This document shows, one piece after another, positions 1 through 43,257 of a stretch of DNA of 64,000 nt. A program made the translations under genes and the position numbers. The stretch comes from Azolla caroliniana. Taxonomy: Eukaryota; Plantae; Polypodiophyta. How positions within the stretch are numbered: the first letter of the stretch is position 1; each line of letters opens with the position of its first letter. Below the pieces are notes generated by a model. That model had not been told where the DNA came from. It searched no databases and was given only the letters and a program-made list of their open reading frames with translations. The stretch is from positions 1,922,001 through 1,986,000 of the forward strand of contig JBHGNT010000010.1 in NCBI GenBank assembly GCA_043228905.1. Direction: 5' to 3'.

Positions 1-180
1 ACGCTTGCATGTCCACGCGTGCTCAACGCACGATGCCAAGCGTATGATCTCGTGTCCATGGCATCTGACCCGACCACGGGACTCAGCCCTTACAAGGAGG
101 ATGGTGTCGTCTACTTCACATTGTCTGCCGAGAACCTTCTTCCCTTCACCCTCATCAACGCGACCAAGACTGCGACCTAA
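1..180 (+). CDS. 3' end of secreted protein subtype A, copy A1 (truncated by window edge)
   Basis: Frame 1 reads TLACPRVLNARCQAYDLVSMASDPTTGLSPYKEDGVVYFTLSAENLLPFTLINATKTAT-TAA(178-180), the same as the C-terminus of 23048-23716. Position 1 corresponds to 23537. Confidence 0.9.
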   Translation, partial: TLACPRVLNARCQAYDLVSMASDPTTGLSPYKEDGVVYFTLSAENLLPFTLINATKTAT

Positions 181-3608: not shown

Positions 3609-3801
3609 CCTATAAATAGGCCACAGTATCTCATCTCTCCACATCAACAATACATCACACCACCACAAGCACGAAAGGAAGTAAGGTAAAATTTCAGTAG
3701 TGTCAAACTGTTGGTCTGAATGTGGCTGTGTTAATGCATGTATGTATATATGTTCTCATTAAGAAGGAATGGTGTGTGTTTGCTCCTCATTCATTAGGAA
3801 G
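3609..3801 (+). promoter_or_regulatory. TATA box, 5' UTR and 5'-UTR intron of gene B1
   Basis: CCTATAAATAGG at 3609. The AAG|GTAAAA donor (3686) and TTCATTAG acceptor (3797) lie just before ATG 3802. The same layout precedes B2 and B3. Confidence 0.6.
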
Positions 3802-4467
3802 ATGAGGAGTCTTGTGCTACTTCTGGTTGCCATGGCCATTACCTTGGTTTCTACTAGCGCACTCGGCCAACCCAACGACATTTGCCCCACGGCCGATGAA
3901 GCCGTTTTCCCCCAGTGGTCCGTATGCTCCTCTCCAGCAACCTATAGCTACGCTGGGGGTGTTTACCAGATCCAATCGGTTGGGAGTAGCGCGGGCTATG
4001 GCCAATACCTGGCGCCAGAGTGGGACTCCGAGAATTCGACCTACTATGTCCGCCTGGTCAATGGCGCTTCCTCCGCGGCCAAATACGTGTTCACACACAA
4101 CAGCAGGGAAATCCGATCATATGTTGCAGTGAACGCCAATGACATCATCATCAAGAATGCCGACACCCAGAGATTTCTGGCATGGCGAGACGAGGGCGGG
4201 GAGAAGTTCCTCGTGGAGGCGGACACATCCGACGATGATACAAGCCAAGGATTCTTCAAGTTCACACCTGACTTTGTTCCCTTGCCCTGCCCTTTTATCT
4301 TGCAAGTGCGTTGCCAGGCCTACGACATCGTCTCGGGATCCGACCCCTCATCCGGACTCACCGCGTACAAAGAGGATGGCGCCATCTACTTCAAACTCGC
4401 CGCCAATGATCCTGTCCCCTTTGTCCTTCGTAGAACCCAAACTGAAAGCTTGAAAAGCTTAATGTAA
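3802..4467 (+). CDS. Secreted protein subtype B, copy B1 (221 aa; putative beta-trefoil protease inhibitor-like)
   Basis: GC-rich ORF in AT-rich flanks. Signal peptide MRSLVLLLVAMAITLVSTSALG and 4 conserved Cys. The upstream ATG at 3769 lies in the predicted intron and is followed by an in-frame stop in the B2 copy. Confidence 0.9.
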   Translation: MRSLVLLLVAMAITLVSTSALGQPNDICPTADEAVFPQWSVCSSPATYSYAGGVYQIQSVGSSAGYGQYLAPEWDSENSTYYVRLVNGASSAAKYVFTHNSREIRSYVAVNANDIIIKNADTQRFLAWRDEGGEKFLVEADTSDDDTSQGFFKFTPDFVPLPCPFILQVRCQAYDIVSGSDPSSGLTAYKEDGAIYFKLAANDPVPFVLRRTQTESLKSLM

Positions 4468-6920: not shown

Positions 6921-8436
6921 ATAGGTACTAGAGAGTGTGTATATATATATATATATATGTAAATCAATGGCAAATTGGAAATTGTTTGTTGTCAATAAGT
7001 CCCCAAGATCCCCAACAAAATTGTTTGTTTGTATAAGCACTCATTAGAATTCCGAGTGTGCAAACTTTGGGTGAATGAGAATTTAAAGAGAGATGGGATT
7101 TGAGAGTTTGGGATGTGTGTGTATGTATCATAAACTAGGAAGAGGAAGAGAGGAGGGATACATGTGAATATGAGGTTCAAGTTAGACTCTTAGGTTTGTG
7201 AGGAGTGTTTCTTCATTGGGTCTCGTTTGTGAGGGCTATATTCTATTGCTCCAAAACAAAGCTTCACAAGAAGTTTCTTCCTCATGTAAAGCTTTTTCAC
7301 TTTGATTTAGGTTCTCTTGGACGTGAGCTCGTCACAAGATATTTTTCTAGGATATCTCAACCTTCACATGTAGAACTTGGATTTTGCTTCCACTCTCATG
7401 CCTCGAACATAAGCTTCATTCTTCGACCGCCAAGGTGATTCCAAGGCAATACATCTTTATAATTTATGGTTAATACACAACTAGGTTAGGTCATTTAGGT
7501 AAGCTTGGTCTTGAGTTTGGATTGGAGGCTAAGGACAAACTGCAGGTTACATTTTAACAATTGAATCCTGTTATGTACACATAACATTGGTGAGGGTAAG
7601 TCACCAATACTTACATTAGTGAAGGGTATGTTCACTAATGTTAAAAGGGGGACTAATGATTGGATAGAAGGAATGATAAGTGCATTCACTTTCATGATTT
7701 GGACAACCAATTAATGGAGAGCCTTTTAGAAAGGCACATCTATTCAAGGGGCCTAGGAAAAGGTATAAATATGAGGTTTAGCTACCCTCATAATTGTTGG
7801 GATTACGGTCCCTCCGGATGGGATGGTCGGATGTCCGGGAATCGGGAATGAAGACCCGAATGAGGAGTACCCGGTTACGGAGCCGGATGCTGAAGACCCC
7901 GGTTACGGAGCCGGATGATGAAGACCCCGGTTACGGAGCCGGATGACGAATGTACCCGGAGAGAGATCCGGATGCGGGGACATATTTGTGAATATGTTTG
8001 CCAAGAGCCCTTGAGGCTATATTTGTAAATAACCCAACAGTCATATGTGTATAAATATGACTTAGGGCAAACAGTTTGTTGTTGTTGCTCATTTTATGCG
8101 AAGTGAGAGCAGCCGAGAGAGAGAGAGAGAGAGAGAGACGAAGAGGTCGTTGCCTCTGTGTATTACCGCCGCCTGTGGCGAAGACAGTGAGCTCAAGGTT
8201 GTTGCCTTGTAGCTTCACCAGTGTACATCCCTGTTCATAGTGATAGTTGGAATCTGAGGACTCCCGTGGTTTTTTCCCATTTAGGGTTTTCCACGTAAAA
8301 CATCCAGTGTGCCCTTCTCTCTATTGTTTTTCGTGCATTGTTGTATTTCCCGTTTTCTGTGAATCGATCCTGTTCCTCGGTTGTGGCCGAGCACTGTTTT
8401 TCAACAAGTGGTATCAGAGCGACGGTAACACAGAAA

Positions 8437-11400
8437 ATGGAAGGCGGCGGTAGTGGGCCTCCGGGCATGATGGTGTTGAACTCACAGAACTACGCCGATT
8501 GGAAGATAAAGATGGAAGACCTTCTCATCGTCCGAGACCTGTACGAACCGATCGACAATGCCGAGATACCCAAGGGAGTAATAGAGTCGGAGTGGAAGCT
8601 CCTGAACCGGAAAGCCGTAGCGACGATCCGGCAATATGTCGATGTAAGTGTCCTGCAACATGTGGCGAACGACACGAACGCATATGAGATGTGGAAGAAG
8701 CTGTCGGGCCTCTACGAGAGGAAGAATGCGTTGAACCGGACCTCCCTGATGAGGAAGATAGTGAACCTCAAGTACCGGGACGGGGAGAATATGGTGGAAC
8801 ACGTGAGCACGTTCATGGGATTCGTGAACCAGCTTGCGGCGATCAAGTTCCCGTTGGAGGATGCAATGCAAGCCATCATTCTGATGTGTACATTGCCGGA
8901 AAGCTGGGAGAACTTGGTGGTGACTCTCAGCACCTCCTGCACCGAAGATAACTTGTCTCTACAAACGGTAAAGACAAGCATTTTGAACGAAGAAGCGCGT
9001 CGGAGAGATAAAGAACCGGTTTCTGATCCGAAGATGCTGCTTACCGAATCGGATCGGGGAAGACAATGGAACCGGAGTCCGCAAAGACGGGAGAAGTCGG
9101 GGACCCGGTCGCAGTCTAGAGGAAGGCCCACATGCTTCCACTGTGGGAAGCCGGGGCACTTCCGGAAGAATTGTCGGCATTACCGAAAGGACAACGGAGC
9201 CGACGACACCGATTCGAAGAAGTCACCGGAGAGAAACGGTGCATACCGGGGAGCCACGGACCGGAGAGGTCCGGATCGGCGAGGGCAGGACCGGAAAGGA
9301 ACGACGGCACTCGCGGCAAGTGAAGAAGAAATCATGCTCATTACCGAAGAGAGGGAGCTGAACCTTGCCGGTGTAGAGATGACCTGGGTGGTTGATTCCG
9401 GAGCGTCGTTCCACCTGACCCCGGAGAAGAAATACTTCTCATCCTACACAACCGGTGAGCACGGCTGTGTCCGGATGGGAAATGAAGGCACATGCCGGAT
9501 TGCCGGCATAGGAGACGTGTGGCTGATGACATCAACCGGATGCAAGATGCTGCTGAAGGATGTGCGACACGTTCCGGAGGTCCGATTGAACCTGATCTCG
9601 GCCGGGAGGCTAGATGATGAAGGCTACACGGGTAGCATCCGGAACGGTGTCATGAAGTTCAGCAAGGGGAGCCTGATAGTGGCTCGGGCCCGGAAGGTCA
9701 ACACACTGTACCTGATGAATTCCCGGCTATGTCCGGAGGAGCTGAACGTGGCAGCCGACACTGCCGGTGAGCTGTGGCACAAGAGACTGTGCCACATGAG
9801 TGAGAAGGGAATGAAGAGGCTTGCAGAGGACAGCCTTATTCCAGTGAAGCATGTGCACCTGGAGAAGTGCACCGACTGCCTGGCCGGTAAGCAGAACCGA
9901 ACCTCCTTCCACTCAAGGCCACCGACGAGACGTAGCGCACCATTGGAGTTGGTGCACACGGATGTGTGTCAGGTAGAAACGAAGTCACATGGCGGAGCCC
10001 AGTACTTCGTGACTTTCATTGATGATCACAGCCGGAAGCTGTGGACAGCACCGTTGAAGACAAAGGACCAAGTATTGTCCGTCTTCAAAGAACTCCACGC
10101 GAGAGTGGAAAGGGAATCCGGCAAGAAGCTGAAAGCGATACGAGCAGATAACGGAGGGGAATACCGGGGGCAGTTCCAGGAGTACTGTCGCTCGAAGGGA
10201 ATCCGGCTCGAGTTTACTGTGCCGAAGACGCCGGAACTGAACGGGCTGGCCGAGAGGATGAACCGGACCATAATGGAGAGGGTCCGGAGTATGCTGGCGC
10301 ATGCGAAATTACCCAAGGGGTTTTGGGCTGAGGCAATGTCGACGACGACATACGTGATAAACAGATCACCCTCAGTACCTTTGGACGGAGACACGCCGCA
10401 GAAAGTGTGGACCGGTAGGGAAGTATCCTACCGGCATCTGAAGGTCTTCGGGTGTCTCGCATATGTGCATGTGGCAAAGGACCGGAGAGGAAAGCTAGAT
10501 CCAAAGACCCGGCCATGCATATTCCTCGGTTACGGCGACGACGAGTTCGGCTACCGAGTATGGGACCCGGTCGACAAGAAGATATTCAGGAGTCGAGACA
10601 TCATCTTCATGGAGGACAAGACACTCGCCGACTTGGAGTCGGAGAAGAAGATGAAGAGCTCCAAGTCGACCGGTGAGGATCAACTCTACGAGGAGCAGTC
10701 CCGACCGGCAAGGGACCGGTTAGCACTCGAGGATCCGGCCGAAGACGGTGAAGAAACAGAACCGGCCGAAGAAGATGAAAATGATACCGGGACCGGCCCC
10801 GATCCCGAAATGGATTCGGATGAAGAAGAATCGGAAGAACCGGTTACCGAAGCTCCGGAACGGAGATATCCTCTAAGGGAGAGAAGGGCCCCCCGGAGAT
10901 TTCCGGAACCAGAGCACGTGCTGCTAACCGACGAGGGGGAGCCGGAGAGCTTTGAAGAAGCAAAGCATGACACCCAGAGCCGTAGGTGGTTGAGTGCCAT
11001 GCAGGACGAGATGGATTCCCTGCATGAGAACCACACATATGAACTTGTGGAGCTGCCGAAAGGAAAACGGGCACTCCGTAACAAGTGGGTGTTCAAGCTG
11101 AAACCGGGAGATGCCGGAAACCCCCCGAGATACAAAGCCAGGATCGTGGTGAAGGGGTTTCAGCAGAAGAAGGGCGTCGACTTCGACGAGATATTTGCCC
11201 CGGTAGTGAAGATGACCTCCATCCGGACGGTGCTGAGCATAGCGGCAAGCATGGACCTCGAAGTAGAACAGATGGACGTGAAGACGGCATTCCTTCACGG
11301 TGACCTCGAAGAAGAAATCTACATGCAGCAACCGGAAGGATTCGAGAAGAAAGGGAAGGAGCACCTGGTATGCCGGTTGAAGAAGAGCCTTTACGGACTG

Positions 11401-12510
11401 AAGCAGGCTCCCCGGCAATGGTACCGGAAGTTCGACTCCTTCATGACCGACGAATGGTACCTCAAAACGCAGTCCGACCACTGCGTGTTTGTGAAGAAGT
11501 TCGAAGGAGGAGACTTTCTAATACTCCTCCTGTACGTGGACGACATGTTGATCGTCGGACGGGACCAGGTCAAGATACGGATGCTGAAGAAGGCTCTTCA
11601 CCGAACCTTCTCAATGAAGGACTTGGGTCCGGCGAGGCAAATATTAGGGATGCACATCATCCGGGACTGGAGGAAGAAGCAGTTGTGGCTGTCACAGGAA
11701 AAGTACGTGACAAAGGTGCTTCAACGGTTCAACATGTCGGAAGCAAGACCGGTCGGGTCAACCCTCCCAGCAAACTGCAAGTTGTCCAGCAAGCAAAGTC
11801 CCAAGACAAAGGCTGAGAAGGAGGACATGATGAAAGTGCCATATGCCTCTGCCGTCGGAAGCTTGATGTACGCAATGGTGTGTACAAAACCGGACATAGG
11901 ATATGCAGTCGGAGTGGTGAGCCGGTACATGAGCAATCCCGGCAAAGAGCATTGGAACGCGGCCAAGTGGATACTCCGATACCTGAAGGGCACGGCAAAC
12001 GTGTGCCTCCGATTCGGCTCCGGTAAGCCCGAACTCGACGGCTTTACCGATTCGGATATGTCGGCTGATGCAGATACCAGCCGGTCCACATCAGGGTATG
12101 TGATGACGTACGCAGGGGGAGCTGTTTCATGGCAGTTGAGGCTGCAGAAGACGGTTGCGTTGTCAACCACGGAGGCGGAGTACATGGCGGCTGTTGAAGC
12201 CGGCAAGGAAATAATATGGATGATGGACTTCATTAGAGAGCTCGGTATCCAGCAGGAGGAGTACCGACTCTACTGCGACAGTCAGAGTGCCATCCACCTT
12301 GCGAAGAACGCGGCCTATCACTCCCGGACGAAGCACATCCAGCGAAGATATCACTGGATCCGGGAAAGGATAGAAGACAAGGAGTTCGTGCTGACGAAGG
12401 TCCACACGGACGAGAACGGGTCGGATATGCTGACCAAGGTGCTCACACCCGACAAGCTGGAAGCATGCCAGAAGAGGATCGGATTGGAGAGACATCCCAT
12501 GCCGAAGTGA
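8437..12510 (+). CDS. Copia gag-pol polyprotein, 1357 aa, uninterrupted
   Basis: Zinc knuckle CFHCGKPGHFRKNC, protease WVVDSGAS, integrase HHCC and DDE motifs (HTDVC, DNGGEY, AERMNRT), RT YVDD, RNaseH STTEAEY. First ATG after the PBS is 8437. Confidence 0.96.
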   Translation: MEGGGSGPPGMMVLNSQNYADWKIKMEDLLIVRDLYEPIDNAEIPKGVIESEWKLLNRKAVATIRQYVDVSVLQHVANDTNAYEMWKKLSGLYERKNALNRTSLMRKIVNLKYRDGENMVEHVSTFMGFVNQLAAIKFPLEDAMQAIILMCTLPESWENLVVTLSTSCTEDNLSLQTVKTSILNEEARRRDKEPVSDPKMLLTESDRGRQWNRSPQRREKSGTRSQSRGRPTCFHCGKPGHFRKNCRHYRKDNGADDTDSKKSPERNGAYRGATDRRGPDRRGQDRKGTTALAASEEEIMLITEERELNLAGVEMTWVVDSGASFHLTPEKKYFSSYTTGEHGCVRMGNEGTCRIAGIGDVWLMTSTGCKMLLKDVRHVPEVRLNLISAGRLDDEGYTGSIRNGVMKFSKGSLIVARARKVNTLYLMNSRLCPEELNVAADTAGELWHKRLCHMSEKGMKRLAEDSLIPVKHVHLEKCTDCLAGKQNRTSFHSRPPTRRSAPLELVHTDVCQVETKSHGGAQYFVTFIDDHSRKLWTAPLKTKDQVLSVFKELHARVERESGKKLKAIRADNGGEYRGQFQEYCRSKGIRLEFTVPKTPELNGLAERMNRTIMERVRSMLAHAKLPKGFWAEAMSTTTYVINRSPSVPLDGDTPQKVWTGREVSYRHLKVFGCLAYVHVAKDRRGKLDPKTRPCIFLGYGDDEFGYRVWDPVDKKIFRSRDIIFMEDKTLADLESEKKMKSSKSTGEDQLYEEQSRPARDRLALEDPAEDGEETEPAEEDENDTGTGPDPEMDSDEEESEEPVTEAPERRYPLRERRAPRRFPEPEHVLLTDEGEPESFEEAKHDTQSRRWLSAMQDEMDSLHENHTYELVELPKGKRALRNKWVFKLKPGDAGNPPRYKARIVVKGFQQKKGVDFDEIFAPVVKMTSIRTVLSIAASMDLEVEQMDVKTAFLHGDLEEEIYMQQPEGFEKKGKEHLVCRLKKSLYGLKQAPRQWYRKFDSFMTDEWYLKTQSDHCVFVKKFEGGDFLILLLYVDDMLIVGRDQVKIRMLKKALHRTFSMKDLGPARQILGMHIIRDWRKKQLWLSQEKYVTKVLQRFNMSEARPVGSTLPANCKLSSKQSPKTKAEKEDMMKVPYASAVGSLMYAMVCTKPDIGYAVGVVSRYMSNPGKEHWNAAKWILRYLKGTANVCLRFGSGKPELDGFTDSDMSADADTSRSTSGYVMTYAGGAVSWQLRLQKTVALSTTEAEYMAAVEAGKEIIWMMDFIRELGIQQEEYRLYCDSQSAIHLAKNAAYHSRTKHIQRRYHWIRERIEDKEFVLTKVHTDENGSDMLTKVLTPDKLEACQKRIGLERHPMPK

Positions 12511-12596
12511 AGGGGGAGTTTGTTGGGATTACGGTCCCTCCGGATGGGATGGTCGGATGTCCGGGAATCGGGAATGAAGACCCGAATGAGGAGTAC

Positions 12597-12728
12597 CCGG
12601 TATCGGAGCCGGATGCTGAAGACCCCGGTTACGGAGCCGGATGATGAAGACCCCGGTTACGGAGCCGGATGCTGAAGACCCCGGTTACGGAGCCGGATGA
12701 TGAAGACCCCGGTTACGGAGCCGGATGA
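12597..12728 (+). repeat. 28-bp tandem repeat in the Copia LTR U3 (4+ units in the 3' LTR, 2+ units at 7871-7946 in the 5' LTR)
   Basis: Unit CCGGTTACGGAGCCGGATG(C/A)TGAAGACC. It accounts for the 56-bp LTR length difference (612 vs 668 bp). Confidence 0.9.
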
Positions 12729-13237
12729 CGAATGTACCCGGAGAGAGATCCGGATGCGGGGACATATTTGTGAATATGTTTGCCAAGAGCCCTTGAGGCT
12801 ATATTTGTAAATAACCCAACAGTCATATGTGTATAAATATGACTTAGGGCAAACAGTTTGTTGTTGTTGCTCATTTTATGCGAAGTGAGAGCAGCCGAGA
12901 GAGAGAGAGAGAGAGAGAGACGAAGAGGTCGTTGCCTCTGTGTATTACCGCCGCCTGTGGCGAAGACAGTGAGCTCAAGGTTGTTGCCTTGTAGCTTCAC
13001 CAGTGTACATCCCTGTTCATAGTGATAGTTGGAATCTGAGGACTCCCGTGGTTTTTTCCCATTTAGGGTTTTCCACGTAAAACATCCAGTGTGCCCTTCT
13101 CTCTATTGTTTTTCGTGCATTGTTGTATTTCCCGTTTTCTGTGAATCGATCCTGTTCCTCGGTTGTGGCCGAGCACTGTTTTTCAACAATAATCACATAC
13201 GTCGGAAGGCTACTGTCTTAGACACCGGTGGTGCGGG

Positions 13238-13468: not shown

Positions 13469-16411
13469 TCGGGCTAGGCTTTCGTCTCGACGACCGTGTT
13501 TATCTCTTCCAAGGTATTAGTCATCCTAATATCCGGCGGTATGGGACGTCGGTGGTAGGTTGGCTATGTCTAGATCATAGCTCGGGGGTGGTCGGCTGGA
13601 ACGAGTTCTTCTATCCATTCTATTTTCTTTCTTTTACTTTAGTTTGGTCTATTGATTAATAGTAGACTCTTAATAGTGGTATCAGAGCATTTACTAACAA
13701 TTTTTTTTGTTGTTTTGATGTTTTCTGCATGTTAGCGATGGGGATCTAACAAGGCTAATCATGCTTTCCACAGGATCAAAACAACATTCTTAACCCGGTA
13801 TTGTTCTTTCTCGATCTCTCTTTTCTTTTCTATGATGCTTTCTTCTTGGTCATATGGATTTGGTATTACGTTTTCTTTTCTTTTATTTCTTCTTTCTACC
13901 ATCATACGATGTTAATCTAATTATGCATCGGGTCGAGCGTGTTGCACTAATCGCTCACGCTCAACTCATGGCCCTTTTGCATATTGCGATGTATCTCCCA
14001 CTCTCCCCTCTCTTGAGCCATCTCTTACGATAATAATTATTCTTTTGCATCGGGTCGAGTGTGTTTGCCCTAATTGCACACGCTCACCTCATGGCCCTTT
14101 TGCATATGATGTTGAGTATACCACTCTTCCCTTTATTGAGCCATCGCTTAGTTGATTCTATGGGATGTTGTGGTCTTGACGAGGTGTATGTCGCCTACCT
14201 ATGCCACTCTACTCTCTATTGAGTTGTCACTTGGCCGATTCTATGGGATGTTGTGGCCTTAACGAGGTATATGTCGCTTACCTATGCCACTTTACTCTTT
14301 ATAGAGCCATCAATTGGCCGATTCTAGGGAGATGTGGTGGTCTTGAGGAGGACGTGCATGTCGACTACCTTAGGGTTTCATACCTTAAGGCATGCTTAAT
14401 TATTGATACACTTAATTGATTATTATTCTAATTAATTTCTAATTAAACAAATTTGTCGTTTCTCTTTTGTATGATTTTCTAGTAATAGTCATTTACCCAC
14501 CAACAATTAACTCTCTTTCTTGCCCTTATTTTAAGTTCATCTACACTATTTATGTACGTTTAATGGTGTGACGATTCATGTAGATTATTTTTTAATATTG
14601 AGTGGGCATCATGCCATTTTTTGAACGATTTTTTCCAACGGCTCATCTAGGTTTAACTCATATTATCGAGCCTTAGAACTCAAGTAAAACCACATGAGTT
14701 CCCCTATTGATGTTTTACTCATAGATTTGAGTTCTACATCTTTGCGCACAACACCACCGCCACCTTTATCAATTTGTGGCTTATGTCACAATTGTGAAAA
14801 TTACAACCACCATATTGGGATGTATATGTGGATACCTCACACCATCCATTTATTTGTGACATTTTTTTTTAGTAGGTAACACATGGGTTTTTTGACCCTT
14901 GTTTTTGTCACTACTTGATTCTTATGGGTAGTGCCTTATTTTATCGTTTTTGTCATAACATTTTCTTGTTACTCGCAAGACTAGAATATTACTTGCGAGT
15001 GCACTTGTTTTTTCACGTAATACACTTTCTCGACCATATCAATACATGTTGGGTTGGCATTCTAATATAAGGCTAACTAGGAAACTACGTTGATGTTAGA
15101 ACCATGGTTGAGCCTCAGGGAGCCGCCATGATTATCCAAGATAGAGATCCAAGAAAGACATCTTAGTCATGTTTTCCCCCATGGTTTTTAAAACACCATA
15201 GTGTTACCATAGTTATCGGATCTCGAATCACATCTCATATGTCTAGAGGGGTAAAGACATGAGATGCTTTCTTGGTAAAGTTCTTACAATCAAAATTTCA
15301 AGCATTCATTTTGCTTGTGTATTTTCTGAACCTCCTTATTTATATTGCATACCCACAACTTGCATCATGGAACAAGTTTTGAACGCTGTGGGAGCAATCT
15401 CTCCGACCGAGACCTCTCAACTCCAATCCACATCTCGCACACAAGCTGAGATCACATTTGAGCAATTGCTCACTACTACCTTGAAGCAATTGGCCAAAAT
15501 GAGGCAGGCCAATATGGCATTGGAAAAGAAATTCCAAGAATTGACTATTGAGTCCAAGAAAGAAGGTGAGCCTTCTTTCGTAGTAACGCCATTCAAGGGA
15601 GATAAGAAAGAAAGAACCAAGCAGGCCATTAGCACTTGGCTTGGTCGTTGGGAATCTCACTTTGAGCTCCATCCCAAGGCTGATGCTATAAAAATTGGTT
15701 ACGTCGGTCGTGAGTTAGGTGGCCGAGCTGCTGCTTGGTGGCACGGCCTAAGGACTGCAAAGAACTTACCTAGAACTTGGGAAGGTTTTGTTGATGTTTT
15801 TAAGAAACTGTTTTTGTAGCCACCTTCTTAAACTGAACAAGTGCAACACTTGCTCATGTTGTCGAGTAAGCCATTTACCTCTCTCAAGGATTATGTGCAT
15901 CATGCTCGGACCTAGATCCAAAAATCGGGACTTACGGGTGAGAAATGGTTTGTTGCTTGCTTTTTGAATGGTATTCCTAATGGGAATTACCATTGGATTG
16001 TCCATGACAAGGACCCCACAAATTTTGAGGAAGCCGTCAACATTGTACTTCGGTACCATAGGACTTCCAAGAAAGACCACAATAAACCCGAGTTTGCCAA
16101 AACTCCGAATGTCAAGTTCATTGGGAAACATAAGCAATCCAGTGACACTTTTGACCGCGACCCCAAGAAACCAAACCTCTTCCATGCATATTGCAAGAAG
16201 CGGGGCCACACAAAGGATACCTGTCTTCATCTTGAGAGGAAGTCAATGAACAACCCTCCTCAAGAGAAATCTACGAGTCACACAGGTGAGTCATTTGATG
16301 TTGTTGAAGTTCATACCAACCACTTAAGTTCATGTGAATGCACTTTTCCTTCACATTTACTTGGACATAATGATTTATTCCGATCAGTCGGGTATATCAA
16401 TGGAACACAAG

Positions 16412-19400
16412 TGTCATGAAGACATACATCTTCGTATGGTCGTGGATTATCGAGGCTTGAATAAAGTGACCGTTAGAAACCGATATGCTCTCCCATTGAT
16501 CTCAAGCCTTCTAGAACGCCTCAGTGAAGCAAAGTATTTCACGAAGTTAGATCTTCGAGGTGCCTACAACCTTGTTCGAATTCGTCCTGGGGATGAATGG
16601 AAGACGGCGTTCCGCACTCGCTATGGTCATTTTGAGTACACAGTGATGCCTTTTGGCCTCACGAATGCACCAGCAGTCTTCCAACATATGGCGAATGATA
16701 TTTTTCGAGACTTCCTCGATATCTTCATCATTGTTTACCTGGATGATATCTTGATCTACTCAAAAACTCAAGAAGAACATGATATACATGTTCGCCAAGT
16801 TTTGCAACGACTACGAGAGTATGGTCTATATGCAAAATTGGAGAAGTGTAGTTTCGACCAACGTCAAGTGGAGTTTTTGGGGTACATAGTCTCTTCAAAT
16901 GGCATCTCTATGGATCCATCAAAGGTTCAAACAATTTTGGATTGGCAAACACCACAGTCCGTGCGAGATGTGCAATGTTTTTTGGGGTTCGCAAACTTTT
17001 ATCGCAAGTTCATCAAAGACTATTCAAAAATTGTGTTGCCCCTCACCAGTCTTTAGCCCTTAGCCTACTCCTTGTAATCTTCTTTCTCATAATATAATCG
17101 CATTCCCATTTCTTATCTCTCACTTATACTTTTCTCTCTCTTGCACTCTCTCCCTCTTTCACTCTCTTTCTATCACTATCGCTATCTCTACCGCTCTCGC
17201 CATCTCTATCGTTATCGTTATCTCTATTGCCATCGCTCTCTCTCTCTGCTTCCTACTCAAGAGTCACGACAGTTTGAACCGAATGAGTTGTGATGAGTGT
17301 ATGGACTCTTATTTATAGGCCCTTATGGAGTATTCTAGAATGTTCTAGAATATTTTAGATATTTATGAATAATAATAATAATAAATATAATCATGAAATA
17401 TTCAAGAACATTCTAGAATAATCTAGAATGTTCTAAATATCTCGTAATAACTAAACATATAATTATTATGATTACATCTCACATATGTTATTACAATGGT
17501 TAAAGTACAATATGTAAACCAAGAGGTTATGGGTTCGATTCCTGGTTCGCCAAGATGAATGTCATGATAAGCCAAGATGTATGTCTTCATGACATTATCC
17601 CCCCTTTTCGATGACGAGTTGCACGAGTCGGAAGAAAAGAGTTCAGACTTGGTTTATGAGGATATTGGTTGTGAAATGCAACAACCATGTCGGAGGCATT
17701 GGCAAGATGTTCGGCAGGCTCCCATGTTCGATCATTAGGTGTATAGCCTAACCAATCAACCAAGTAGTATAGTTTGTTGCGAATGATCTTGGAGTCGAGG
17801 ATAGCGGCAACCTCATATTCAGAGCCATTGGAAACGTCAATTGGAGGTGGGGGAGGTGTAACACGACCCGGAATAGAGCTCGTTGTGTAAGGCTCCAAAA
17901 GTGAAACATGGAAGACCGGGTGAAGACGCATATGAGGAGGAAGATCAAGACGAAATGTCACATCATTGATCTTACCACTTATGACATATGGGCCAAAACG
18001 TTGATAATCCAATTTGTAGCAAGGTCGGGTTGTTTTAATGCTACCTTGTAAGAGCCATACACGATCGCCTACTTGAAATGTAGTCGATGAATCACGCCGA
18101 TGACGGTCAGCAATCTTCTTTTGAGTGTTTTGGGCTTCACATAAATGATGCAAAAGCATATCCTGAACTTCTTGGAGTCGAGTGAGCCGATCTTCAGCAG
18201 CTGGGTTTTTTGGGAGTTCAGGATGTTCAAGCATCGTCCAACGAGGATGGTACCCAATGTTTGCAAAAAATGGGGAATATCCAGTAGAAGAATGCTCAGA
18301 GTTGTTATAAGCAAATTCTGCCAAAGGTAGTAAATCCACCCAATCATCTTGTTGATAGTTGACAAAACAACGTAGATATTGCTCGACTGTTTGGTTGGTG
18401 CGCTCACTTTGCCCATTAGTCTCTGGATAGGAGCCATTTGGTTGGACCATCCTAGTTATGTAGAGTCAGTACCTAGTTGTGGTTCCATTGCCGGGAGAGA
18501 GTTTACAAGAAGTATGTAAGAGTCTGAACATGTGCCGCCAAAATTTCGAGATGAATTGGGGACCCCGATCACTGATAATATCATCCGGAAGACCATGATG
18601 GCGAAACACCTCCCACATGAGTAAATCAGCTGTCTCTTGACTAGTAATGGTCTTTGTGCATGGAAGGAAATGTGCCATCTTCGTAAAACGATCGACAACC
18701 GTGAGAATCGAATCAAATCCCTTGGAAGGTGGAAGATCCGTAATAAAGTCCAAGGAAATAGATTTCCATGGGCTCTCCGGAATAGGCATTGGCTGTAATA
18801 AGCCATATGGATGATGTCGAGGCTTTTTTGATCGGCAACATGTATCACAGCTACGAACATAATCCGTAACAAAATGGCGAAGCCGTGGCCACCAATATCG
18901 GCGAGAAATCAACTCAAAAGTCTTGTGGATGCCGAAGTGTCCCGCCATTGGTGTGTCATGACATTGTTGCATGACTTTGAGTCGAGAAGGACCATCAGGC
19001 ACATACAAGAGAGTTTGTCGAAAAAGTAACCCATCATGCCAACTAAACTGGGTGTAGTCTAGACGAGGATTTTGAGTTTGGGAGCTAGATGCACGATTTG
19101 GGATAATATGGCTCAAAACCTCTTCAATAGTTCTTTTTCTCCAATCAATGGTTGGGTTATGTAACTCAAACCAAGGAAGACCAAGAACTAGAGAGTGCTC
19201 CGGACTACTAATGATGTTAAATGAGATGACACTAGCCAAATTACCTAGGACTACACGAATTGGTTCAGACTCTTCGACTATATCTCCTGATGCTATAGGG
19301 CGACCATCGATGACTCCTACAGCTACTGGGTTTGGGAGTTTTTTCGAGACTTCCTCGATATCTTCATCATTGTTTACCTGGATGATATCTTGATCTACTC

Positions 19401-20233
19401 AAAAACTCAAGAAGAACATGATATACATGTTCGCCAAGTTTTGCAACGACTACGAGAGTATGGTCTCTATGCAAAATTGGAGAAGTGTAGTTTCGACCAA
19501 CGTCAATTGGAGTTTTTGGGGTACATAGTCTCTTCAAATGGCATCTCTATGGATCCATCAAAGGTTCAAACAATTTTGGATTGGCAAACACCACAGTCCG
19601 TGCGAGATGTGCAATGTTTTTTGGGGTTCGCAAACTTTTATCGCAAGTTCATCAAAGACTATTCAAAAATTGTGTTGCCCCTCACCAGTCTTTAGCCCTT
19701 AGCCTACTCCTTGTAATCTTCTTTCTCATAATATAATCGCATTCCCATTTCTTATCTCTCACTTATACTTTTCTCTCTCTTGCACTCTCTCCCTCTTTCA
19801 CTCTCTTTCTATCACTATCGCTATCTCTACCGCTCTCGCCATCTCTATCGTTATCGTTATCTCTATTGCCATCGCTCTCTCTCTCTGCTTCCTACTCAAG
19901 AGTCACGACAGTTTGAACCGAATGAGTTGTGATGAGTGTATGGACTCTTATTTATAGGCCCTTATGGAGTATTCTAGAATGTTCTAGAATATTTTAGATA
20001 TTTATGAATAATAATAATAATAAATATAATCATGAAATATTCAAGAACATTCTAGAATAATCTAGAATGTTCTAAATATCTCGTAATAACTAAACATATA
20101 ATTATTATGATTACATCTCACATATGTTATTACAATGGTTAAAGTACAATATGTAAACCAAGAGGTTATGGGTTCGATTCCTGGTTCGCCAAGATGAATG
20201 TCATGATAAGCCAAGATGTATGTCTTCATGACA
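16412..20233 (-). mobile_element. Rearranged Tcn1-like chromovirus derivative
   Basis: TSD ACAAG (16407-16411, 20234-20238); perfect 21-bp terminal inverted repeat; ~894-bp direct repeat (16701-17594 / 19340-20233). PPT at 17595-17608 (minus). Protease, integrase and chromodomain remnants are on minus (17587-19340), while RT fragments are on plus (16433-17056, 19340-19695). Confidence 0.9.
17333..17433. promoter_or_regulatory. Heat-shock-element arrays in the LTR (copy at 19972-20072)
   Basis: TTCtaGAAtgTTCtaGAA and GAAcaTTCtaGAA, located upstream (minus strand) of TATAAAT at 17311-17317. Confidence 0.55.
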
Positions 20234-22620
20234 ACAAGCACATTTCTTGTTTGATTCCAGTAGTTCTCACAATTTTTTTAATAATCACTTTGTGCAACAA
20301 ATGGAACTCCACATAAAGGCAAGTGATCATATCTATCAAGTTCACATGGCAAATGGAAGTGTTCAATACATCAGTGGCATTGTTTGTCAACTGCCAATTC
20401 AAATAGATACCTATTTGGCGAAGCTTCACTTTCATGTTATGGAACTACAATCCGCAGATATCATTTTAGGATAGCCTTGGTTTTTTAATAAAAACCCTTC
20501 TTTGTCCATTGATTGGGTTAATCACTCAATCACATTTGAACTTAATAATTGTAAACATTTTATTTAATGTTCCAAACTTCTCGTTCACTTGTGTCTTCTA
20601 AATCTTTAAATGAGTATTCAAGTTCATTAATTTATTCGTGTGTAATTGATCTTGTGCTTCAATTTTATTATTTTCATATTGACACCACACAATTACCACA
20701 TTATGAACAACAATTACTCGACTCTATTTTAGACGATTTTCAAGACGTGTTTCCTAACGAATTGCCATTTCCTTTATCGCTAAAACGTAATGTGGACCAT
20801 CAATTTGAACTCATTCCTGGTGCTTCTCTTGTGAGCATTCCACCTTACCGACTTAGTCGATTAGAAGAGGATAAGATCGCTAAACAACTTAAGGAATACT
20901 TATGTATGGGCCACATTAGGTATAGTAAATCACCTTGGGGTGCGCCAGTTCTATTGGTTAAGAAGAAGGAAGGTTCATGGTGAATGTGTATCAATTATCG
21001 CCGTTTGAATAAAATGACAATTAAAAATGCATATCCGTTACCTCGTGCCAATGATTTGATTGATCGTTTGCATGGGGCTCGATATTTTACGAAAATTGAC
21101 TTACGGACATGTTATCATCAGATTCGCATTGCCAAGGATGATATTCCTAAAACCACTTTTCGTATGCGCTATAGCCATTATGAGTTTTTAGTCATGCCTT
21201 TCGGGTTGACTAATGCTCCAACCACATTCCAACAAGCGATGAATGACGTTTTCCGAGATCAACTCGGTGATTTTGTTGTTGTCTGCTTGGATGATATTTT
21301 GATATATAGCCGTACCTTGAAAGATCATGTTCAACATGTTCCATTTGTTTTGCAAAAGTTGCGTGACAACTCTTTCTATGCAAAACATTTCAAAATGTGA
21401 TTTTTTCCAAAAATCTATTGTGTACCTAGGTCATTTAATTATGGAAAGTGGTGTGGAAATTGAACCTTCTCCTATTGAAATGGTTAAACTTTGGCCCATT
21501 CCTTGTAATATTCATGAACTACGATCATTCTTAGGGTTTGTTGGATTTTTATGAAAATCAATTCGTATCTATTCCAAATTGACTACGCCATTAACTGACC
21601 TTTTAAAAGGTCATCCACGTAAGTCTGTCAAACCAATTGCATGGAATGAACAACTTGACAAATCATTTGAGACACTCAAAGAGCATGTGTGTCTGGCTCC
21701 CACTCTTCGGTGGTAGGTTGCCTATGTCTAGATCATAGCTCGGGGATGGTCGGGTGGAACAGGTTCTTCAATCCATTCTATTTTCCTTCTTTTACTTTAG
21801 TTTGGTCTATTGATTAGTAATAGACTCTTAACAAATCCCTCGAGACCATTATTAATGTTGGAATTGATCAAGATCATTCTACTCAAATGCATGAGTCATT
21901 GCCAATTCTATTACTTGAGGGTTACAAATTACGTTAATTTTAAGTATACATACTTGTGTCAGCTTAGGTAATAAGTAGAGTGTATTAATAATTTGGAAGA
22001 ATATAAATAAGCTAGTTTTTGAACTGATGTATGCAGTAATAAACTATTTCTCAAATTTTAGTGCGATGCTAATGTGGCAAGAGCAAGAGACATAGATTTG
22101 AAATATATATATATATATATATATGACATGCTTGATCAATGTTTGAAAAAAGGGTTGAGAAATGAAGGGGGTTGGTTAAAAAGCTTATGTATGCAAGTAG
22201 TGGATTGATGTGAAATACCTCGATTGCAATTATTAAATACTTAGATACTTAGGAACCACATTATACAAGAACTAGTCCACACTCTCATTTAAAACTAATT
22301 TTGCTCTATCACGGCTAATCATGAGATGGTACAAGGGCGCATAGTATGTTTTTAGGGTTTACTCAATTGTATACTTATTCTTCACGTAATCGCATGTTCC
22401 TTGGTAATTTAAGAAGAATGTGGGCTTTCAATTGATAAAGACGCCTCTCTCATGGTGATATGACAAGACAAGTCCAACACGAAGAATGATAGAAATCGGG
22501 TGGGCGGATTCCACAAGGTAATGTATTTACACTAAATGATCTACAAGAGAATAAGAGGAATTTGTTGTAGTACAAATGTGTACTTGCCTTTGACTATGTC
22601 ATAAACTGCGTCTTGAGAAG

Positions 22621-23047
22621 CACGTGCTAATTTTTTCTTGGGGAAGATGCGCACGTGCTTATTGTTAATATTCCCATTGTTCACACCAAGGTCATGGGCC
22701 ATGGCCAATGGTGACATGATTTAGGTCTGGCATGGCATGCTTATCTCCTGCAATGAATGATCTATCACAGCCATAGCTTGTTCCTCACGCCTATAAATAC
22801 CACACTATCCTCCACTCCATTATTACCAACAAACAATTCCCAATCTTCCATCTCTACATTTCCACCACTAATTATACATCCATACATTTCCTACCAAGGT
22901 ATTTCTGAATCATCTATTCTTGTGTTATGCTTCCTCTGATTGCTCTATTTAAACACATGTAGCTTTCATTTGATTCCTGTTTGATTAGGTTTTCTCCGCA
23001 GTTTCATACAAAAGTTCCAGCGGCAGATCGCATTTCGATTCGGCAGG
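22621..23047 (+). promoter_or_regulatory. Promoter and 5' UTR (probable intron) of gene A2
   Basis: Two CACGTG G-boxes (22621, 22652), CCTATAAATA at 22790, CAAG|GTATTT donor at 22899; acceptor uncertain. Conserved before A3. Confidence 0.5.
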
Positions 23048-23716
23048 ATGAGGAATATGTTGCTCTTCTCTTTTGTTGCCATTTGTTTGGCGTGCAGTCA
23101 TTCCCCCGAATTCGGGCTCGCGGCCGACGAAGACATTTGCCCCACGGCACAAGAAGCCGTGTTCCCGTACTGGTCGTTGTGCTCGGATCCCGCAAAGTAT
23201 AGTTACTCCGGAGGTATTTACAAGCTCCAATCGCAAGGAAGCGGGGATGGCAATGGCTATCTCCTGGCCCCCGAGTGGGATGCCACAGACTCCACCTACT
23301 ATGTCCGCCTCGTGGAGGATTCGGCTGCGGCTGCCAATTACGTGTTCACACACACCACAAGGGAAATCCGTCCATACGTCACGGTGTCCGACACCAACAT
23401 CATCATCGTGAATGCCGACACCCAGCGGTATCTGAAGTGGCGCGACGAAGGCGGGGAACGGTTCTTGGTGGAGGCGGCCATGAATGAGGATTCTACAAGC
23501 CTGGCATTGTTCGAGTTTGCACCCAACAACACGGTCACGCTTGCATGTCCACGCGTGCTCAACGCACGATGCCAAGCGTATGATCTCGTGTCCATGGCAT
23601 CTGACCCGACCACGGGACTCAGCCCTTACAAGGAGGATGGTGTCGTCTACTTCACATTGTCTGCCGAGAACCTTCTTCCCTTCACCCTCATCAACGCGAC
23701 CAAGACTGCGACCTAA
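23048..23716 (+). CDS. Secreted protein subtype A, copy A2 (222 aa)
   Basis: Hydrophobic signal peptide. Colinear with subtype B (DICP.A.EAVFP.WS.C, LAPEWD, STYYVRLV, NADTQR, EGGE.FLVEA, RCQAY, EDG..YF.L). Confidence 0.92.
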   Translation: MRNMLLFSFVAICLACSHSPEFGLAADEDICPTAQEAVFPYWSLCSDPAKYSYSGGIYKLQSQGSGDGNGYLLAPEWDATDSTYYVRLVEDSAAAANYVFTHTTREIRPYVTVSDTNIIIVNADTQRYLKWRDEGGERFLVEAAMNEDSTSLALFEFAPNNTVTLACPRVLNARCQAYDLVSMASDPTTGLSPYKEDGVVYFTLSAENLLPFTLINATKTAT

Positions 23717-28536: not shown

Positions 28537-29205
28537 ATGAGGACTCTTGTGCTACTTCTGGTTGCCATGGCCATCTCCTTGGTTTCTACTGGCGCACTCA
28601 GTCAACCCAACGACATTTGCCCCACGGCCGATGAAGCCGTTTTCCCCTACTGGTCCCTATGCTACGATCCAGCAACCTATGACTACTCTGGGGGTGTTTA
28701 CGCCATCGAATCGGCGGGGAGTAGCGGGGGCTCTGGCCAATACCTGGCGCCAGAGTGGGACTCCGAGAATTCCACCTACTATGTCCGCCTGGTCAATGGC
28801 GATTCCTCCGCGGCCAAGTACGTGTTCACACACAACAGCAGGGAAATCCGATCATATGTTGCCGTGAACGCCAATGACATCATCATCAAGAATGCCGACA
28901 CCCAGAGATTTCTGGCATGGCGAGACGAGGGCGGGGAGAAGTTCCTCGTGGAGGCGGACACATCCGATGATGATACAAGCCAAGGATTCTTCAAGTTCAC
29001 ACCCGATCGCTTTGTTCGCGTGCCGTGCCCTGTTATCTTTCAACTGCGTTGCCAGGCCTACAACATCGTCTCGGGATCCGACCCCTCATCCGGACTCACC
29101 GCGTACGAGGAGGATGGCGCCATCTACTTCAAACTCGCCGCCGATGATCTTGTCCCCTTTGTCCTTCGTACAACCCAATCTGAAAGCTTGAAAAGCTTAA
29201 TGTAA
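28537..29205 (+). CDS. Secreted protein subtype B, copy B2 (222 aa)
   Basis: Intact paralogue of B1 with signal peptide, TATA at ~28323 and the same intron signals. Confidence 0.92.
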   Translation: MRTLVLLLVAMAISLVSTGALSQPNDICPTADEAVFPYWSLCYDPATYDYSGGVYAIESAGSSGGSGQYLAPEWDSENSTYYVRLVNGDSSAAKYVFTHNSREIRSYVAVNANDIIIKNADTQRFLAWRDEGGEKFLVEADTSDDDTSQGFFKFTPDRFVRVPCPVIFQLRCQAYNIVSGSDPSSGLTAYEEDGAIYFKLAADDLVPFVLRTTQSESLKSLM

Positions 29206-32311: not shown

Positions 32312-35300
32312 TGTTATGTACACATAACGTTGGTGAGGGTAAGTCACCAATATTTACATTAGTGAAGGGTATGTTCACTAATGTTAAAAAGGAGACTGAT
32401 GATTGGATAGAAGGAATGATAAGTGCATGCACTATAATGATTTGGACAACCAATTAATGGAGAGCCTTTTAGAAAGGCACATCTATTCAAGGGGCCTAGG
32501 AAAAGGTATAAATATGAGGCTTAGCTAGCCTCATAATCAAATTACGTCGGAAGGCTACTGTCTTAGACACCGGTGGTGCGGGCTAGGCTTTTGTCTCGAC
32601 GATCGTGTTTATCTCTTCCAAGGTATTAGTCATCCTAATATCCGGCGGTATGGGACATCGGTGGTAGGTTGGCTATGTCTAGATCATAGCTCGGGGGTGG
32701 TTGAGCGGAACAGGTTCTTCTATCCATTCTGTTTTCCTTCTTTTACTTTAGTTTGGTCTATTGATTAGTAATAGACTCTTAACAGTGGTATCAAAGCATT
32801 TACTAACAATTTTTTTTGTTTTTTTGATGTTTTTTGTGTGTGAGCGATGGAGATCAAACAAGGCTCGTCATGCTCTTCACAAGATCAAAACAACATTCTA
32901 AACTCGGTATTCTTCTTTCTCGATCTCTCTTTTCTTTTCTATGAGGCTTCCTTCTTGGTCATATGGATTTGGTATTAAGTTTTTCTTTTCTTTTCTTTCT
33001 TCTTTCTACCATCATACGATGTTAATCTAATTATGCATCGGGTCGAGCGTGTTTGCACTAATTGCACACGCTCAACTCATGGCCCTTTTCCATATTGCGA
33101 TGTATCTTCCACCCTCTCCTCTCTTGAGCCATCTCTTACGATAATAATTATTCATGTGCATCGGGTCGAGTGTGTTTGCCCTAATCGCACACGCTCACCT
33201 TATGGCCCTTTTGCATATGATGTTGAGTATACCACTCTTCCCTTTATTGAGCCATCTCTTGGTTGATTCTATGGGATGTTGTGGTCTGGACGAGGTGTAT
33301 GTCGCCTACCTACGCCACTCTACTCTCTATTGAGCCATCACTTGGCCGATTCTATGGGATGTGGCCTTAACGAGGTATATGTCGCTTACCTATGCCACTT
33401 TACTCTTTATAGAGCCATCAATTGGCCGATTCTAGGGAGATGTGGTGGTCTTGAGGAGGACGTGCATGTCGACTACCTTAGGGTTTCATACCTTAAGGCA
33501 TGCTTAATGATTGATACACCTAATTGATTATTATTCTAATTAATTTCTAATTACACAAATTTTCGTTTCTCTTCTGTATGATTTTCTAGTAATCGTCATT
33601 TACCCACCCACAATTAACTCTCTTGCTTGCCCTTATTTTAAGTTCAGCTACACTATTTAGGTACGTTTAATGGTGTAACGATTCATGTAGACTATTTTTT
33701 TATATTGAGTGGGCATCATGCCGTTTTTTGAACGATTTATTCCAACGGCTCATCTAGGTTTAACTCATATTATCGAGCCTTAGAACTCGAGTAAAACCAC
33801 ATGAGTTGCCCTATTGATGTTTTACTCATAGATTTGAGTTCTACATCTTTGCGCACAACACCACCACCACTTGTATCAATTTGTGGCTTATGTCACAATT
33901 GTGCAAATTACAACCACCATATTGGGATGTATATGTGGATACCTCACACCATCCATTTATTTGTGACATTTGTTTTTAATAGGTAACACATGGGATTTTT
34001 GACCCTTATTTTCGTCACTACTTGATTCTTATGGGTAGTGCCTTATTTTATCATTTTTGTCATAACTTGCATCATGGAACAAGTTTTGAACACTGTTGGA
34101 GCAATCTCTCCGACCGAGACCTCTCAACTCCAATCCACATCTCACACACAAGCTGAGATCACATTTGAGCAATTGCTCACTACTACCTTGAAGCAATTGG
34201 CCGAAATGAGGCAGGCCAATATGGCATTGGAAAAGAAATTCCAAGAATTAACTATTGAGTCCAAGAAAGAAGGTGAACCTTCTTTCGAAGTAACGCCATT
34301 CAAGGGAGATAAGAAAGAAAGAACCAAGGAGGCCATTAGCACTTGGCTTGGTCGTTGGGAGTCTCACTTTGAGCTCCATCCCAAGGCCGATGCTATAAAA
34401 ATTGGTTACGTTGGTCGTGAGTTAGGTGGCCGAGCTGCTGCTTGGCGGCACGGCCTAAGGACTGCAAAGAACTTACCCACAACTTGGGAAGGTTTTGTTG
34501 ATGTTTTTAAGAAACTGTTTTTGTAGCCACCTTCTTAAACTGAACAAGCGCAACACTTGCTCATGTTGTTGACTAAGCCATTTACCTCTCTCAAGGATTA
34601 TGTGCATCATGCTCGGACCTAGATCCAAAAATCGGGACTTACGGGTGAGAAATGGTTTGTTGCTTGCTTTTTGAATGGTATTCCTAATGGGGATTACCAT
34701 TGGATTGTCCATGACAAGGACCCCATAACTTTCAAGGAAGCCGTCAACATTGTACTTCGGTACCATAGGACTTCCAAGAAAGACCACAATAAACCTGAGT
34801 TTGCCAAAACTCCGAATATCAAGTTCATTGGGAAACATAAGCAATCCAGTGACACTCTTGACCGCGACTCCAAGAAACCAAACCTCTTCCTTGCATATTG
34901 CAAGAAGCAGGGCCACACAAAGGATACATGTTATCGTCTTGAGAGGAAGTCAATGAACAACCCTCCTCAAGACAAATCTACGAGTCACTTAATTTTTTGT
35001 TGTTGTTGTTGTTGAAGTTCATACCAACCACTTAAGTTCATGTGAATGCACTTTTCCTTCACATTTACTTGGACATAATGATTAATTCCGATCAGTCGGG
35101 TATATCAATGGAAGACAAGCACATTTCTTGTTTGATTCCAGTAGTTGTCACTTTGTGCAACAAATGGAACTCAACATAAAGGCAAGTGATCATATCTATC
35201 AAGTTCACATGGCAAATGGAAGTGTTCAATACATCAGTGGCATTGTTTGTCAACTGCCAATTCAAATAGATACCTATTTGGCGAAGCTTCACTTTCATGT

Positions 35301-40800: not shown

Positions 40801-41469
40801 ATGAGGAATATGCTGCTCTTCTCTTTTGTTGCCATTTGTTTGGCGTGCAGTCATTCGCCCGAATTCGGGCTCGCGGCCGACGAAGACATTTGCCCCATGG
40901 CACAAGAAGCCGTGTTCCCGTACTGGTCGTTGTGCTCGGATCCCGCAAAGTATAGTTACTCCGGAGGTATTTACAAGCTCCAATCGCAAGGAAGCGGGGA
41001 TGGCAATGGCTATCTCCTGGCCCCCGAGTGGGATGCCACAGACTCCACCTACTATGTCCGCCTCGTGGAGGATTCAGCCGCGGCAGCCAATTACGTGTTC
41101 ACACACACCACAAGGGAAATCCGTCCATACGTCGCAGTGTCCGACACCAACATCATCATCGTGAATGCCGACACCCAGCGGTATCTGAAGTGGCGCGAGG
41201 AAGGCGGGGAACGGTTCTTGGTGGAGGCGGCCATGAATGAGGATTCTACAAGCCTGGCATTGTTCGAGTTTGTACCCGACAACACGGTCACGCTTGCATG
41301 TCCACGCGTGCTCAACGCACGATGCCAAGCGTATGATCTCGTGTCCATGGCATCGGACCCGACCACGGGACTCAGCCCTTACAAGGAGGATGGTGTCGTC
41401 TACTTCACATTGTCTGCCGAGAACCTTCTTCCCTTCACCCTCATCAACGCGACCAAGACTGCGACCTAA
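40801..41469 (+). CDS. Secreted protein subtype A, copy A3 (222 aa)
   Basis: Intact; 5 amino-acid differences from A2. Confidence 0.92.
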   Translation: MRNMLLFSFVAICLACSHSPEFGLAADEDICPMAQEAVFPYWSLCSDPAKYSYSGGIYKLQSQGSGDGNGYLLAPEWDATDSTYYVRLVEDSAAAANYVFTHTTREIRPYVAVSDTNIIIVNADTQRYLKWREEGGERFLVEAAMNEDSTSLALFEFVPDNTVTLACPRVLNARCQAYDLVSMASDPTTGLSPYKEDGVVYFTLSAENLLPFTLINATKTAT

Positions 41470-43097: not shown

Positions 43098-43257
43098 ATG
43101 AAGAGTCTAGTGCCAGGCCTATGACCTGGTCTCTGGATCCGACCCCTCAATTGGATTCACTACGTATGAAGAGGATGGCGTGATCTACCACAAACTCGCC
43201 GCCGATGATCTTGTCCTCTTCGTTCTTCGCACAATTGAATCAAAACTCTTAATGTAA
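43098..43257 (+). pseudogene. Internally deleted B-like pseudogene
   Basis: ATG AAG AGT CTA GTG is joined out of frame to CQAYDLVSGSDPSIGFTTYEEDGVIYHKLAADDLVLFVLRTIESKLLM-TAA. B-like intron and 3' flank are retained. Confidence 0.85.

Follow-up and report, generated by a model that had tools for sequence, protein, structure and literature searches.

What function unites the tandemly arranged genes of this Azolla caroliniana locus, each of which encodes a short loop flanked by two cysteines, with a third loop residue that varies among copies? A first-pass annotation of the window (the whole 64,000-nucleotide stretch of DNA analysed) had read the loop as a Bowman-Birk-spaced, canonical serine-protease inhibitor loop on a trefoil scaffold, with Arg at the P1-like position in A-type genes and Phe or Val in B-type genes. 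We reassessed this reading using the genomic setting of the genes, the range of the family, a predicted structure and the pattern of change at the P1-like position.

A fern gene family in a single cluster

Across the 523 Mb genome searched, all family matches fell between 1.857 and 2.019 Mb of contig C10, in a single cluster, and genome queries with A2, P0032 and P0040 returned matches there only. This cluster comprises seven intact genes (A1-A3 and B0-B3) and several broken copies. The features referred to below are as follows, with window coordinates except for B0.

1-180, forward strand: 3' end of A1, with loop CPRVLNARC at 10-36; the gene start lies 488 bases ahead of the window
3611-3617, forward strand: TATAAAT, 5' of B1, read from the sequence
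3686-3797, forward strand: 112-nt GT..AG intron in the 5'UTR of B-type genes, holding an upstream ATG at 3769
3802-4467, forward strand: B1 coding sequence, 221 aa, hydrophobic N-terminus, predicted Kunitz-type beta-trefoil (fold by homology to the modelled A2)
3883-3927, forward strand: N-terminal Cys pair segment of B1, C28 to C42, with a conserved V-F/Y-P-Y-W-S-x-C motif
4288-4314, forward strand: candidate reactive loop of B1, CPFILQVRC, beta8-beta9, with the P1-like Phe codon at 4294-4296
22899-22988, forward strand: 90-nt GT..AG intron in the 5'UTR of A-type genes
23048-23716, forward strand: A2 coding sequence, 222 aa, with loop CPRVLNARC at 23546-23572; the copy used for modelling
28537-29205, forward strand: B2 coding sequence, 222 aa, with loop CPVIFQLRC at 29026-29052
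40801-41469, forward strand: A3 coding sequence, 222 aa, with loop CPRVLNARC at 41299-41325
43111-43254, forward strand: further B-type copy, a 3' remnant starting at the second loop Cys
44917-45576, forward strand: B3 coding sequence, 219 aa, with loop CPFILGARC at 45406-45432
G000:C10:1866256-1866915: B0, a fourth intact B-type gene outside the window, with loop CPRILGARC

The A and B open reading frames are homologous, encode 219-222 residues, begin with a hydrophobic stretch and have four cysteines in the mature protein; the hydrophobic stretch of B1, judged by eye, is a putative signal peptide. The mature proteins are acidic (pI 4.2-4.5). Every B copy carries an N-S-T glycosylation sequon at residue 78, in the beta2-beta3 hairpin, and A1 and A2 carry an N-N-T sequon at residue 160, just ahead of the loop, which A3 lacks.

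None of the matching public runs is recorded as RNA; contigs from run X2, which we guess to be RNA, bear on expression. The A-type 90-nt join occurred in one 842-nt contig (47 letters on the short side) and the B-type 112-nt join in one contig with 28 letters on the short side and 7 differences, which marks it as a B-type paralogue or allele. A further X2 contig matched the B1 loop region (4263-4336) with zero differences. Together, the joins and the exact loop match suggest that A- and B-type genes are both likely transcribed. The position of the 5'UTR intron also sets the B1 start at 3802; the ATG at 3769 was rejected as a start because it falls within that intron.

Mobile and repetitive DNA separates the genes. 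Between units 1 and 2 lies a Ty1/copia-type retrotransposon (7870-13189, with a 1357-aa open reading frame at 8437-12510), whose 538-bp terminal repeats, with a 28-bp tandem array, are 100% identical, indicating a very recent insertion. Decayed gypsy- and copia-type fragments occupy 15259-21400, 34074-36814 and 50849-54766, the segments 16701-17594 and 19340-20233 are 99.8% identical, and a 48-bp unit recurs 22 times across 60280-61347 (80% matches), giving repetitive open reading frames on both strands.

A six-frame scan of the window returned 12 C-P-x6-C matches, six of them in frame at the equivalent position of homologous open reading frames and six unrelated. All six loop motifs named in the first-pass annotation were present and in frame where it had placed them. 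The loop cysteines are near-invariant among 27 non-redundant relatives (26/27 and 25/26 filled rows), so the motif is not a chance resemblance.

A profile search of 1.84 billion representatives gave 24 matches at E up to 0.001. The species-named relatives were all Adiantum or Ceratopteris (three in one search; seven of the ten looked up in another), and the family appears, as far as these collections reach, to be restricted to ferns. Pfam and PDB sequence searches with family proteins returned nothing meaningful: there was no Kunitz (PF00197) match at E up to 10 in the five window proteins or the 36 family members, and a 21-residue loop query matched no PDB sequence. The accessible literature on fern and Azolla protease inhibitors and on Kunitz evolution held no description of the family, which could be included in the supplements of a fern-orthogroup survey (bioRxiv 10.1101/2024.08.27.609851). 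The accessible text of that work, a structure survey of 25 fern orthogroups, and PMC13214078 contain zero mentions of Kunitz, trypsin, protease inhibitor or trefoil.

A predicted Kunitz-like trefoil and the position of the loop

An AlphaFold2 model of A2 from a 36-row alignment (pLDDT 93.5, pTM 0.90) has 12 strands. Foldseek placed Kunitz-type inhibitors at ranks 1-7 (best E 3.9e-5), and in a comparison with 48,161 representative chains the best 15 were plant Kunitz-fold proteins (Z 15.7-19.0, rmsd 2.4-3.4, 145-166 residues aligned) with identities of only 8-14%; other trefoils start at Z 15.6, just under the Kunitz-fold rows. A second structural comparison agreed with this ranking, and a search of a viral fold library returned generic trefoils only. 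The predicted fold is thus a 12-strand beta-trefoil closest to the plant Kunitz-STI type, which sharpens the trefoil scaffold proposed in the first-pass annotation.

By our own strand count on this model, the Cys141-Cys149 loop falls between beta8 (128-134) and beta9 (151-156). In the modelled fold this segment is the linker of trefoil units 2 and 3, and the pseudo-threefold symmetry mate of the classical beta4-beta5 reactive loop. According to the accessible text of PMC3633903, most Kunitz inhibitors use the beta4-beta5 loop, and the double-headed API-A uses L6 and L10; fungal trefoil inhibitors use yet other loops (accessible text of PMC9104457). We found no use of beta8-beta9 as a Kunitz reactive site in the accessible text of these two papers or in a targeted literature search, and on this coverage the position may be new.

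Repeated switching at the P1-like residue

We examined the third loop residue in a set of 34 proteins from which near-duplicates and fragments had been left out. Arg occupies this position in 14, a hydrophobic residue (Leu, Phe, Val or Ala) in 17 and Thr, Asn or Asp in the remaining three, with Lys in none (0/34). Arg requires 11 changes on the family tree, of which well-supported branches dictate at least five, and its clustering does not exceed that of shuffled labels (269/500); the hydrophobic label requires nine, a number that 42 of 500 shuffles did not exceed. Among 176 columns, the P1 column ranks first for basic/large-hydrophobic bimodality by a statistic chosen after that column was seen (0.41; runners-up 0.38 and 0.35), and it shows nine tree changes against two and six in the two runner-up columns. 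Its neighbours are conserved (P2 Pro in 27/31, P5' Arg in 26/31), and the spacing of the loop cysteines is nine-residue in 31 of the 34 proteins and ten-residue in three. P0038 and P0053 have ten-residue Pro-Pro loops (CPLIYPPLSC and CPFIWPPPHC) and are the only members nearing the Bowman-Birk Pro-Pro turn.

Within Azolla, the strict rule that A copies carry Arg and B copies a hydrophobic residue had to be rejected: the CPRILGARC loop of B0 shows that Arg occurs outside A as well. In run X1, too, the main B-type contigs carry Arg at 4294-4296 (depth 1093/1169). The first-pass annotation had further suggested that A and B are co-amplified because their specificities complement each other. Units 1 and 2 are indeed alike, sharing ~95.6% across several kb around both genes, a similarity for which proximity alone suffices; the Arg of B0 and the differing histories of A and B weaken the suggestion. 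A copies are 97.7-98.6% identical (A3 to A1/A2, 97.7-98.2%) and B copies 88.8-94.2% (B3 to B1/B2, 88.8-90.7%), which argues that units were not simply duplicated as fixed pairs. These sequence comparisons are better described by two lineages, of which A is conserved and keeps Arg and B diversifies.

The diversification of B reaches the loop itself. Between P9 and P5', the proteins of B0 and B3 differ at P1 alone (CGT vs TTT). Across B0-B3 the same stretch is the most variable 14-codon window, with 12 amino-acid changes in 14 codons vs 35 in 170 (251 of 20,000 permutations as extreme); by counts, the N:S ratio of loop vs rest does not differ significantly (Fisher p 0.57). Site models on B0-B3, run with our own implementation on four sequences and in a test that double-base codon changes can inflate, estimated omega at ~4 for 18% of sites (M1a/M2a p 0.006), with P1 in the top two sites; p was 0.10 without the loop and 0.03 without one conflicting site. 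Positively selected B sites fall outside the loop as well, and A copies gave no site-model signal. Recombination among B copies seems limited but present, since 14 of 15 informative mature-region sites back one topology. B1 has a 3-base deletion at 4268-4272, just ahead of the loop (P9), and B1 and B2 share a P8 Phe and a P4 Pro; the non-prime side has therefore changed along with P1. With repeated switching, bimodality and site models pointing the same way, the P1-like residue appears to behave as the specificity switch it was first taken to be. The family thus shares with canonical serine-protease inhibitors a hypervariable P1 set in an otherwise conserved loop anchored by cysteines.

Other copies have decayed. 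A 5'-truncated A-type remnant (G000:C10:1857897-1858191, loop CPCVLNTRC) precedes the intact B0, so that, in one case only, loss of the Arg A gene from a unit goes together with Arg in its B gene. Broken or partial paralogues at G000:C10:1874012-1874592, 1907277-1907426, 2014403-2014790 and 2018361-2018564 show frameshifts, stops and one inverted fragment, with loops reading CPFISGACC and CPHFLTARC. As read from these copies, the pattern is one of birth and death.

Alternative roles for the fold and the loop

Kunitz-like folds also occur in proteins of other function, and the family could consist of non-inhibitors (binders of ligands, glycans, pigments or other enzymes, or storage proteins) with the loop as a variable surface for binding or recognition. 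Among the best-ranked structures are winged bean albumin and water-soluble chlorophyll protein, neither titled an inhibitor, and the amylase-binding BASI; ricin-B lectin clusters are among the Atlas neighbours at 0.89-0.90, and the selected B sites outside the loop also fit this reading. We nevertheless consider it unlikely. Switching between Arg and Leu/Phe some nine times, between a conserved Cys-Pro and Ile, fits selection by an S1 pocket and would be hard to account for in a lectin or storage protein, and the Kunitz rows stand ~6 Z units above the lectins (19.0 vs 12.9).

The proteins might instead inhibit proteases through the classical beta4-beta5 loop (T/S-R-E-I-R-P/S-Y), which would act either by itself or as one of two heads, with the Cys loop secondary. 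That loop is the usual Kunitz site, API-A is a precedent for two heads (accessible text of PMC3633903), and Arg is found there at position 79 in 11/26 members and at 82 in 20/26. However, its central residues are identical in B0-B3 and do not switch specificity class, and distant members have lost it but kept the Cys loop. Pro follows Arg82 in 12/26 and Glu follows Arg79 in 18/26, and both are poor P1' residues. We regard this alternative as improbable.

The third alternative turns on how the cysteines pair. The four mature cysteines map to positions 5, 19, 141 and 149, in the N-terminal arm and beta8-beta9, and the N-terminal pair segment of B1 likely scaffolds the loop. The A2 model has short ladders (bridges) at mature 17-18 and 147-148, which may pair together, the arm packing on the loop; in that arrangement, Cys19-Cys149 plus Cys5-Cys141 would be as plausible as a closed Cys141-Cys149 ring. 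In one member, from Adiantum, Cys19 is missing and position 148 holds an additional Cys. The Bowman-Birk consensus is given as CTP1SXPPXC in the accessible text of PMC7760496, and no family loop fits it (CTxSxPPxC, 0/34; P2 Thr in 0, P1' Ser in 1, P3' Pro in 2); the secondary structure assigned to the model, moreover, shows no hairpin between Cys141 and Cys149. Bowman-Birk membership was rejected on these grounds, and only the C-x7-C spacing with a variable third residue survives from the original comparison. A self-contained Bowman-Birk-type hairpin of nine residues on a trefoil, able to act as a free cyclic peptide, is more improbable still: the spacing of 31/34 loops agrees with it, and the unchanged secondary structure and loop confidence (93 vs 94-95) when A2 was folded without its first seven mature residues, and hence its first N-terminal Cys, are weakly compatible with the loop cysteines pairing together, but mature 139-143 are assigned no strand that could partner 147-148, and the paired ladders would put Cys19 beside Cys149, so that cross-links are possible instead.

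A proposed mechanism

The S1 pockets of trypsin-like enzymes prefer Arg, those of chymotrypsin-like enzymes Leu or Phe and those of elastase-like enzymes Val or Ala. We propose that the family members are probably canonical serine-protease inhibitors with a reactive loop relocated to beta8-beta9 on a Kunitz fold. The proteins, likely secreted, would present the Cys-flanked loop to a protease cleft in the manner of a substrate, with the third residue, X of C-P-X-I/V, as the likely P1 filling the S1 pocket. The loop may owe its rigidity, and hence the resealing of the scissile bond, to two disulfides together with the conserved P5' Arg. Since the third residue flips between Arg and hydrophobic residues, different copies likely block different digestive proteases, and herbivore or pathogen enzymes are the presumed targets. 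A would retain Arg under purifying selection as B copies diversify. We also lean, if less firmly, towards a fuller account: a defence inhibitor family of the ferns' own, Kunitz-folded and unannotated, in which a disulfide-locked canonical beta8-beta9 loop has had its P1 re-tuned many times between trypsin and chymotrypsin/elastase classes, with B0 vs B3 a natural one-residue specificity switch of the loop.

Comparison with known inhibitors

The closest known system is the Kunitz-STI family (MEROPS I3, PF00197: STI, WCI, EcTI). The fern proteins resemble it in the predicted 12-strand trefoil, size and N-terminal extension (Z 17-19), in tandem plant genes and in an intronless coding sequence, and we infer the same canonical mechanism. 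Unlike it, they have no PF00197 sequence match, and their candidate site is L9 (beta8-beta9) rather than L5 (beta4-beta5). EcTI has an L3-L6 bond and Cys133-Cys142 (accessible text of PMC3633903), whereas the fern cysteines lie in the N-terminal arm and L9; the pattern of conserved Kunitz L3-L6 and beta9-beta10 disulfides is not that of the four mature fern cysteines. API-A (PDB 3e8l) shares the Kunitz fold (Z 17.9, rmsd 2.7, 160 aligned) and sites off L5, though at L6 and L10 rather than L9 (same source).

Outside the Kunitz fold, the likenesses are narrower. Bowman-Birk inhibitors and SFTI-1 share C-x7-C with a variable third residue but differ in scaffold, in consensus (34/34 fern-family loops fail it) and in the hairpin, which the fern model lacks. 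Squash and Kazal loops read C-P-R-I/V-L/Y with Cys at P3, and the cysteines of the Kazal C-x7-C bond elsewhere. The motif resembles the fern loop on folds that differ, a resemblance that is convergent at best. The fungal mycospins (I66) and clitocypin (I48) are also beta-trefoil inhibitors with varied loops; they are Atlas neighbours at 0.89-0.92 with 103-118 shared features, which we treat as a lead only, but are not among the best 50 of 48,161 chains and are smaller (~140-160 aa). Most likely, then, the fern family works like a canonical Kunitz-fold inhibitor, yet departs from the Kunitz profile and disulfide pattern.

The mechanism itself is textbook. If the proposal is true, a fern gene family that databases list merely as hypothetical would gain a function, the range of Kunitz-fold inhibitors would come to include ferns, and the loop positions that trefoil inhibitors use would grow by a new one. 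B0 (Arg) and B3 (Phe), 91% identical and with otherwise equal loops, would then offer natural paralogues for the evolution of P1 switching in plant defence.
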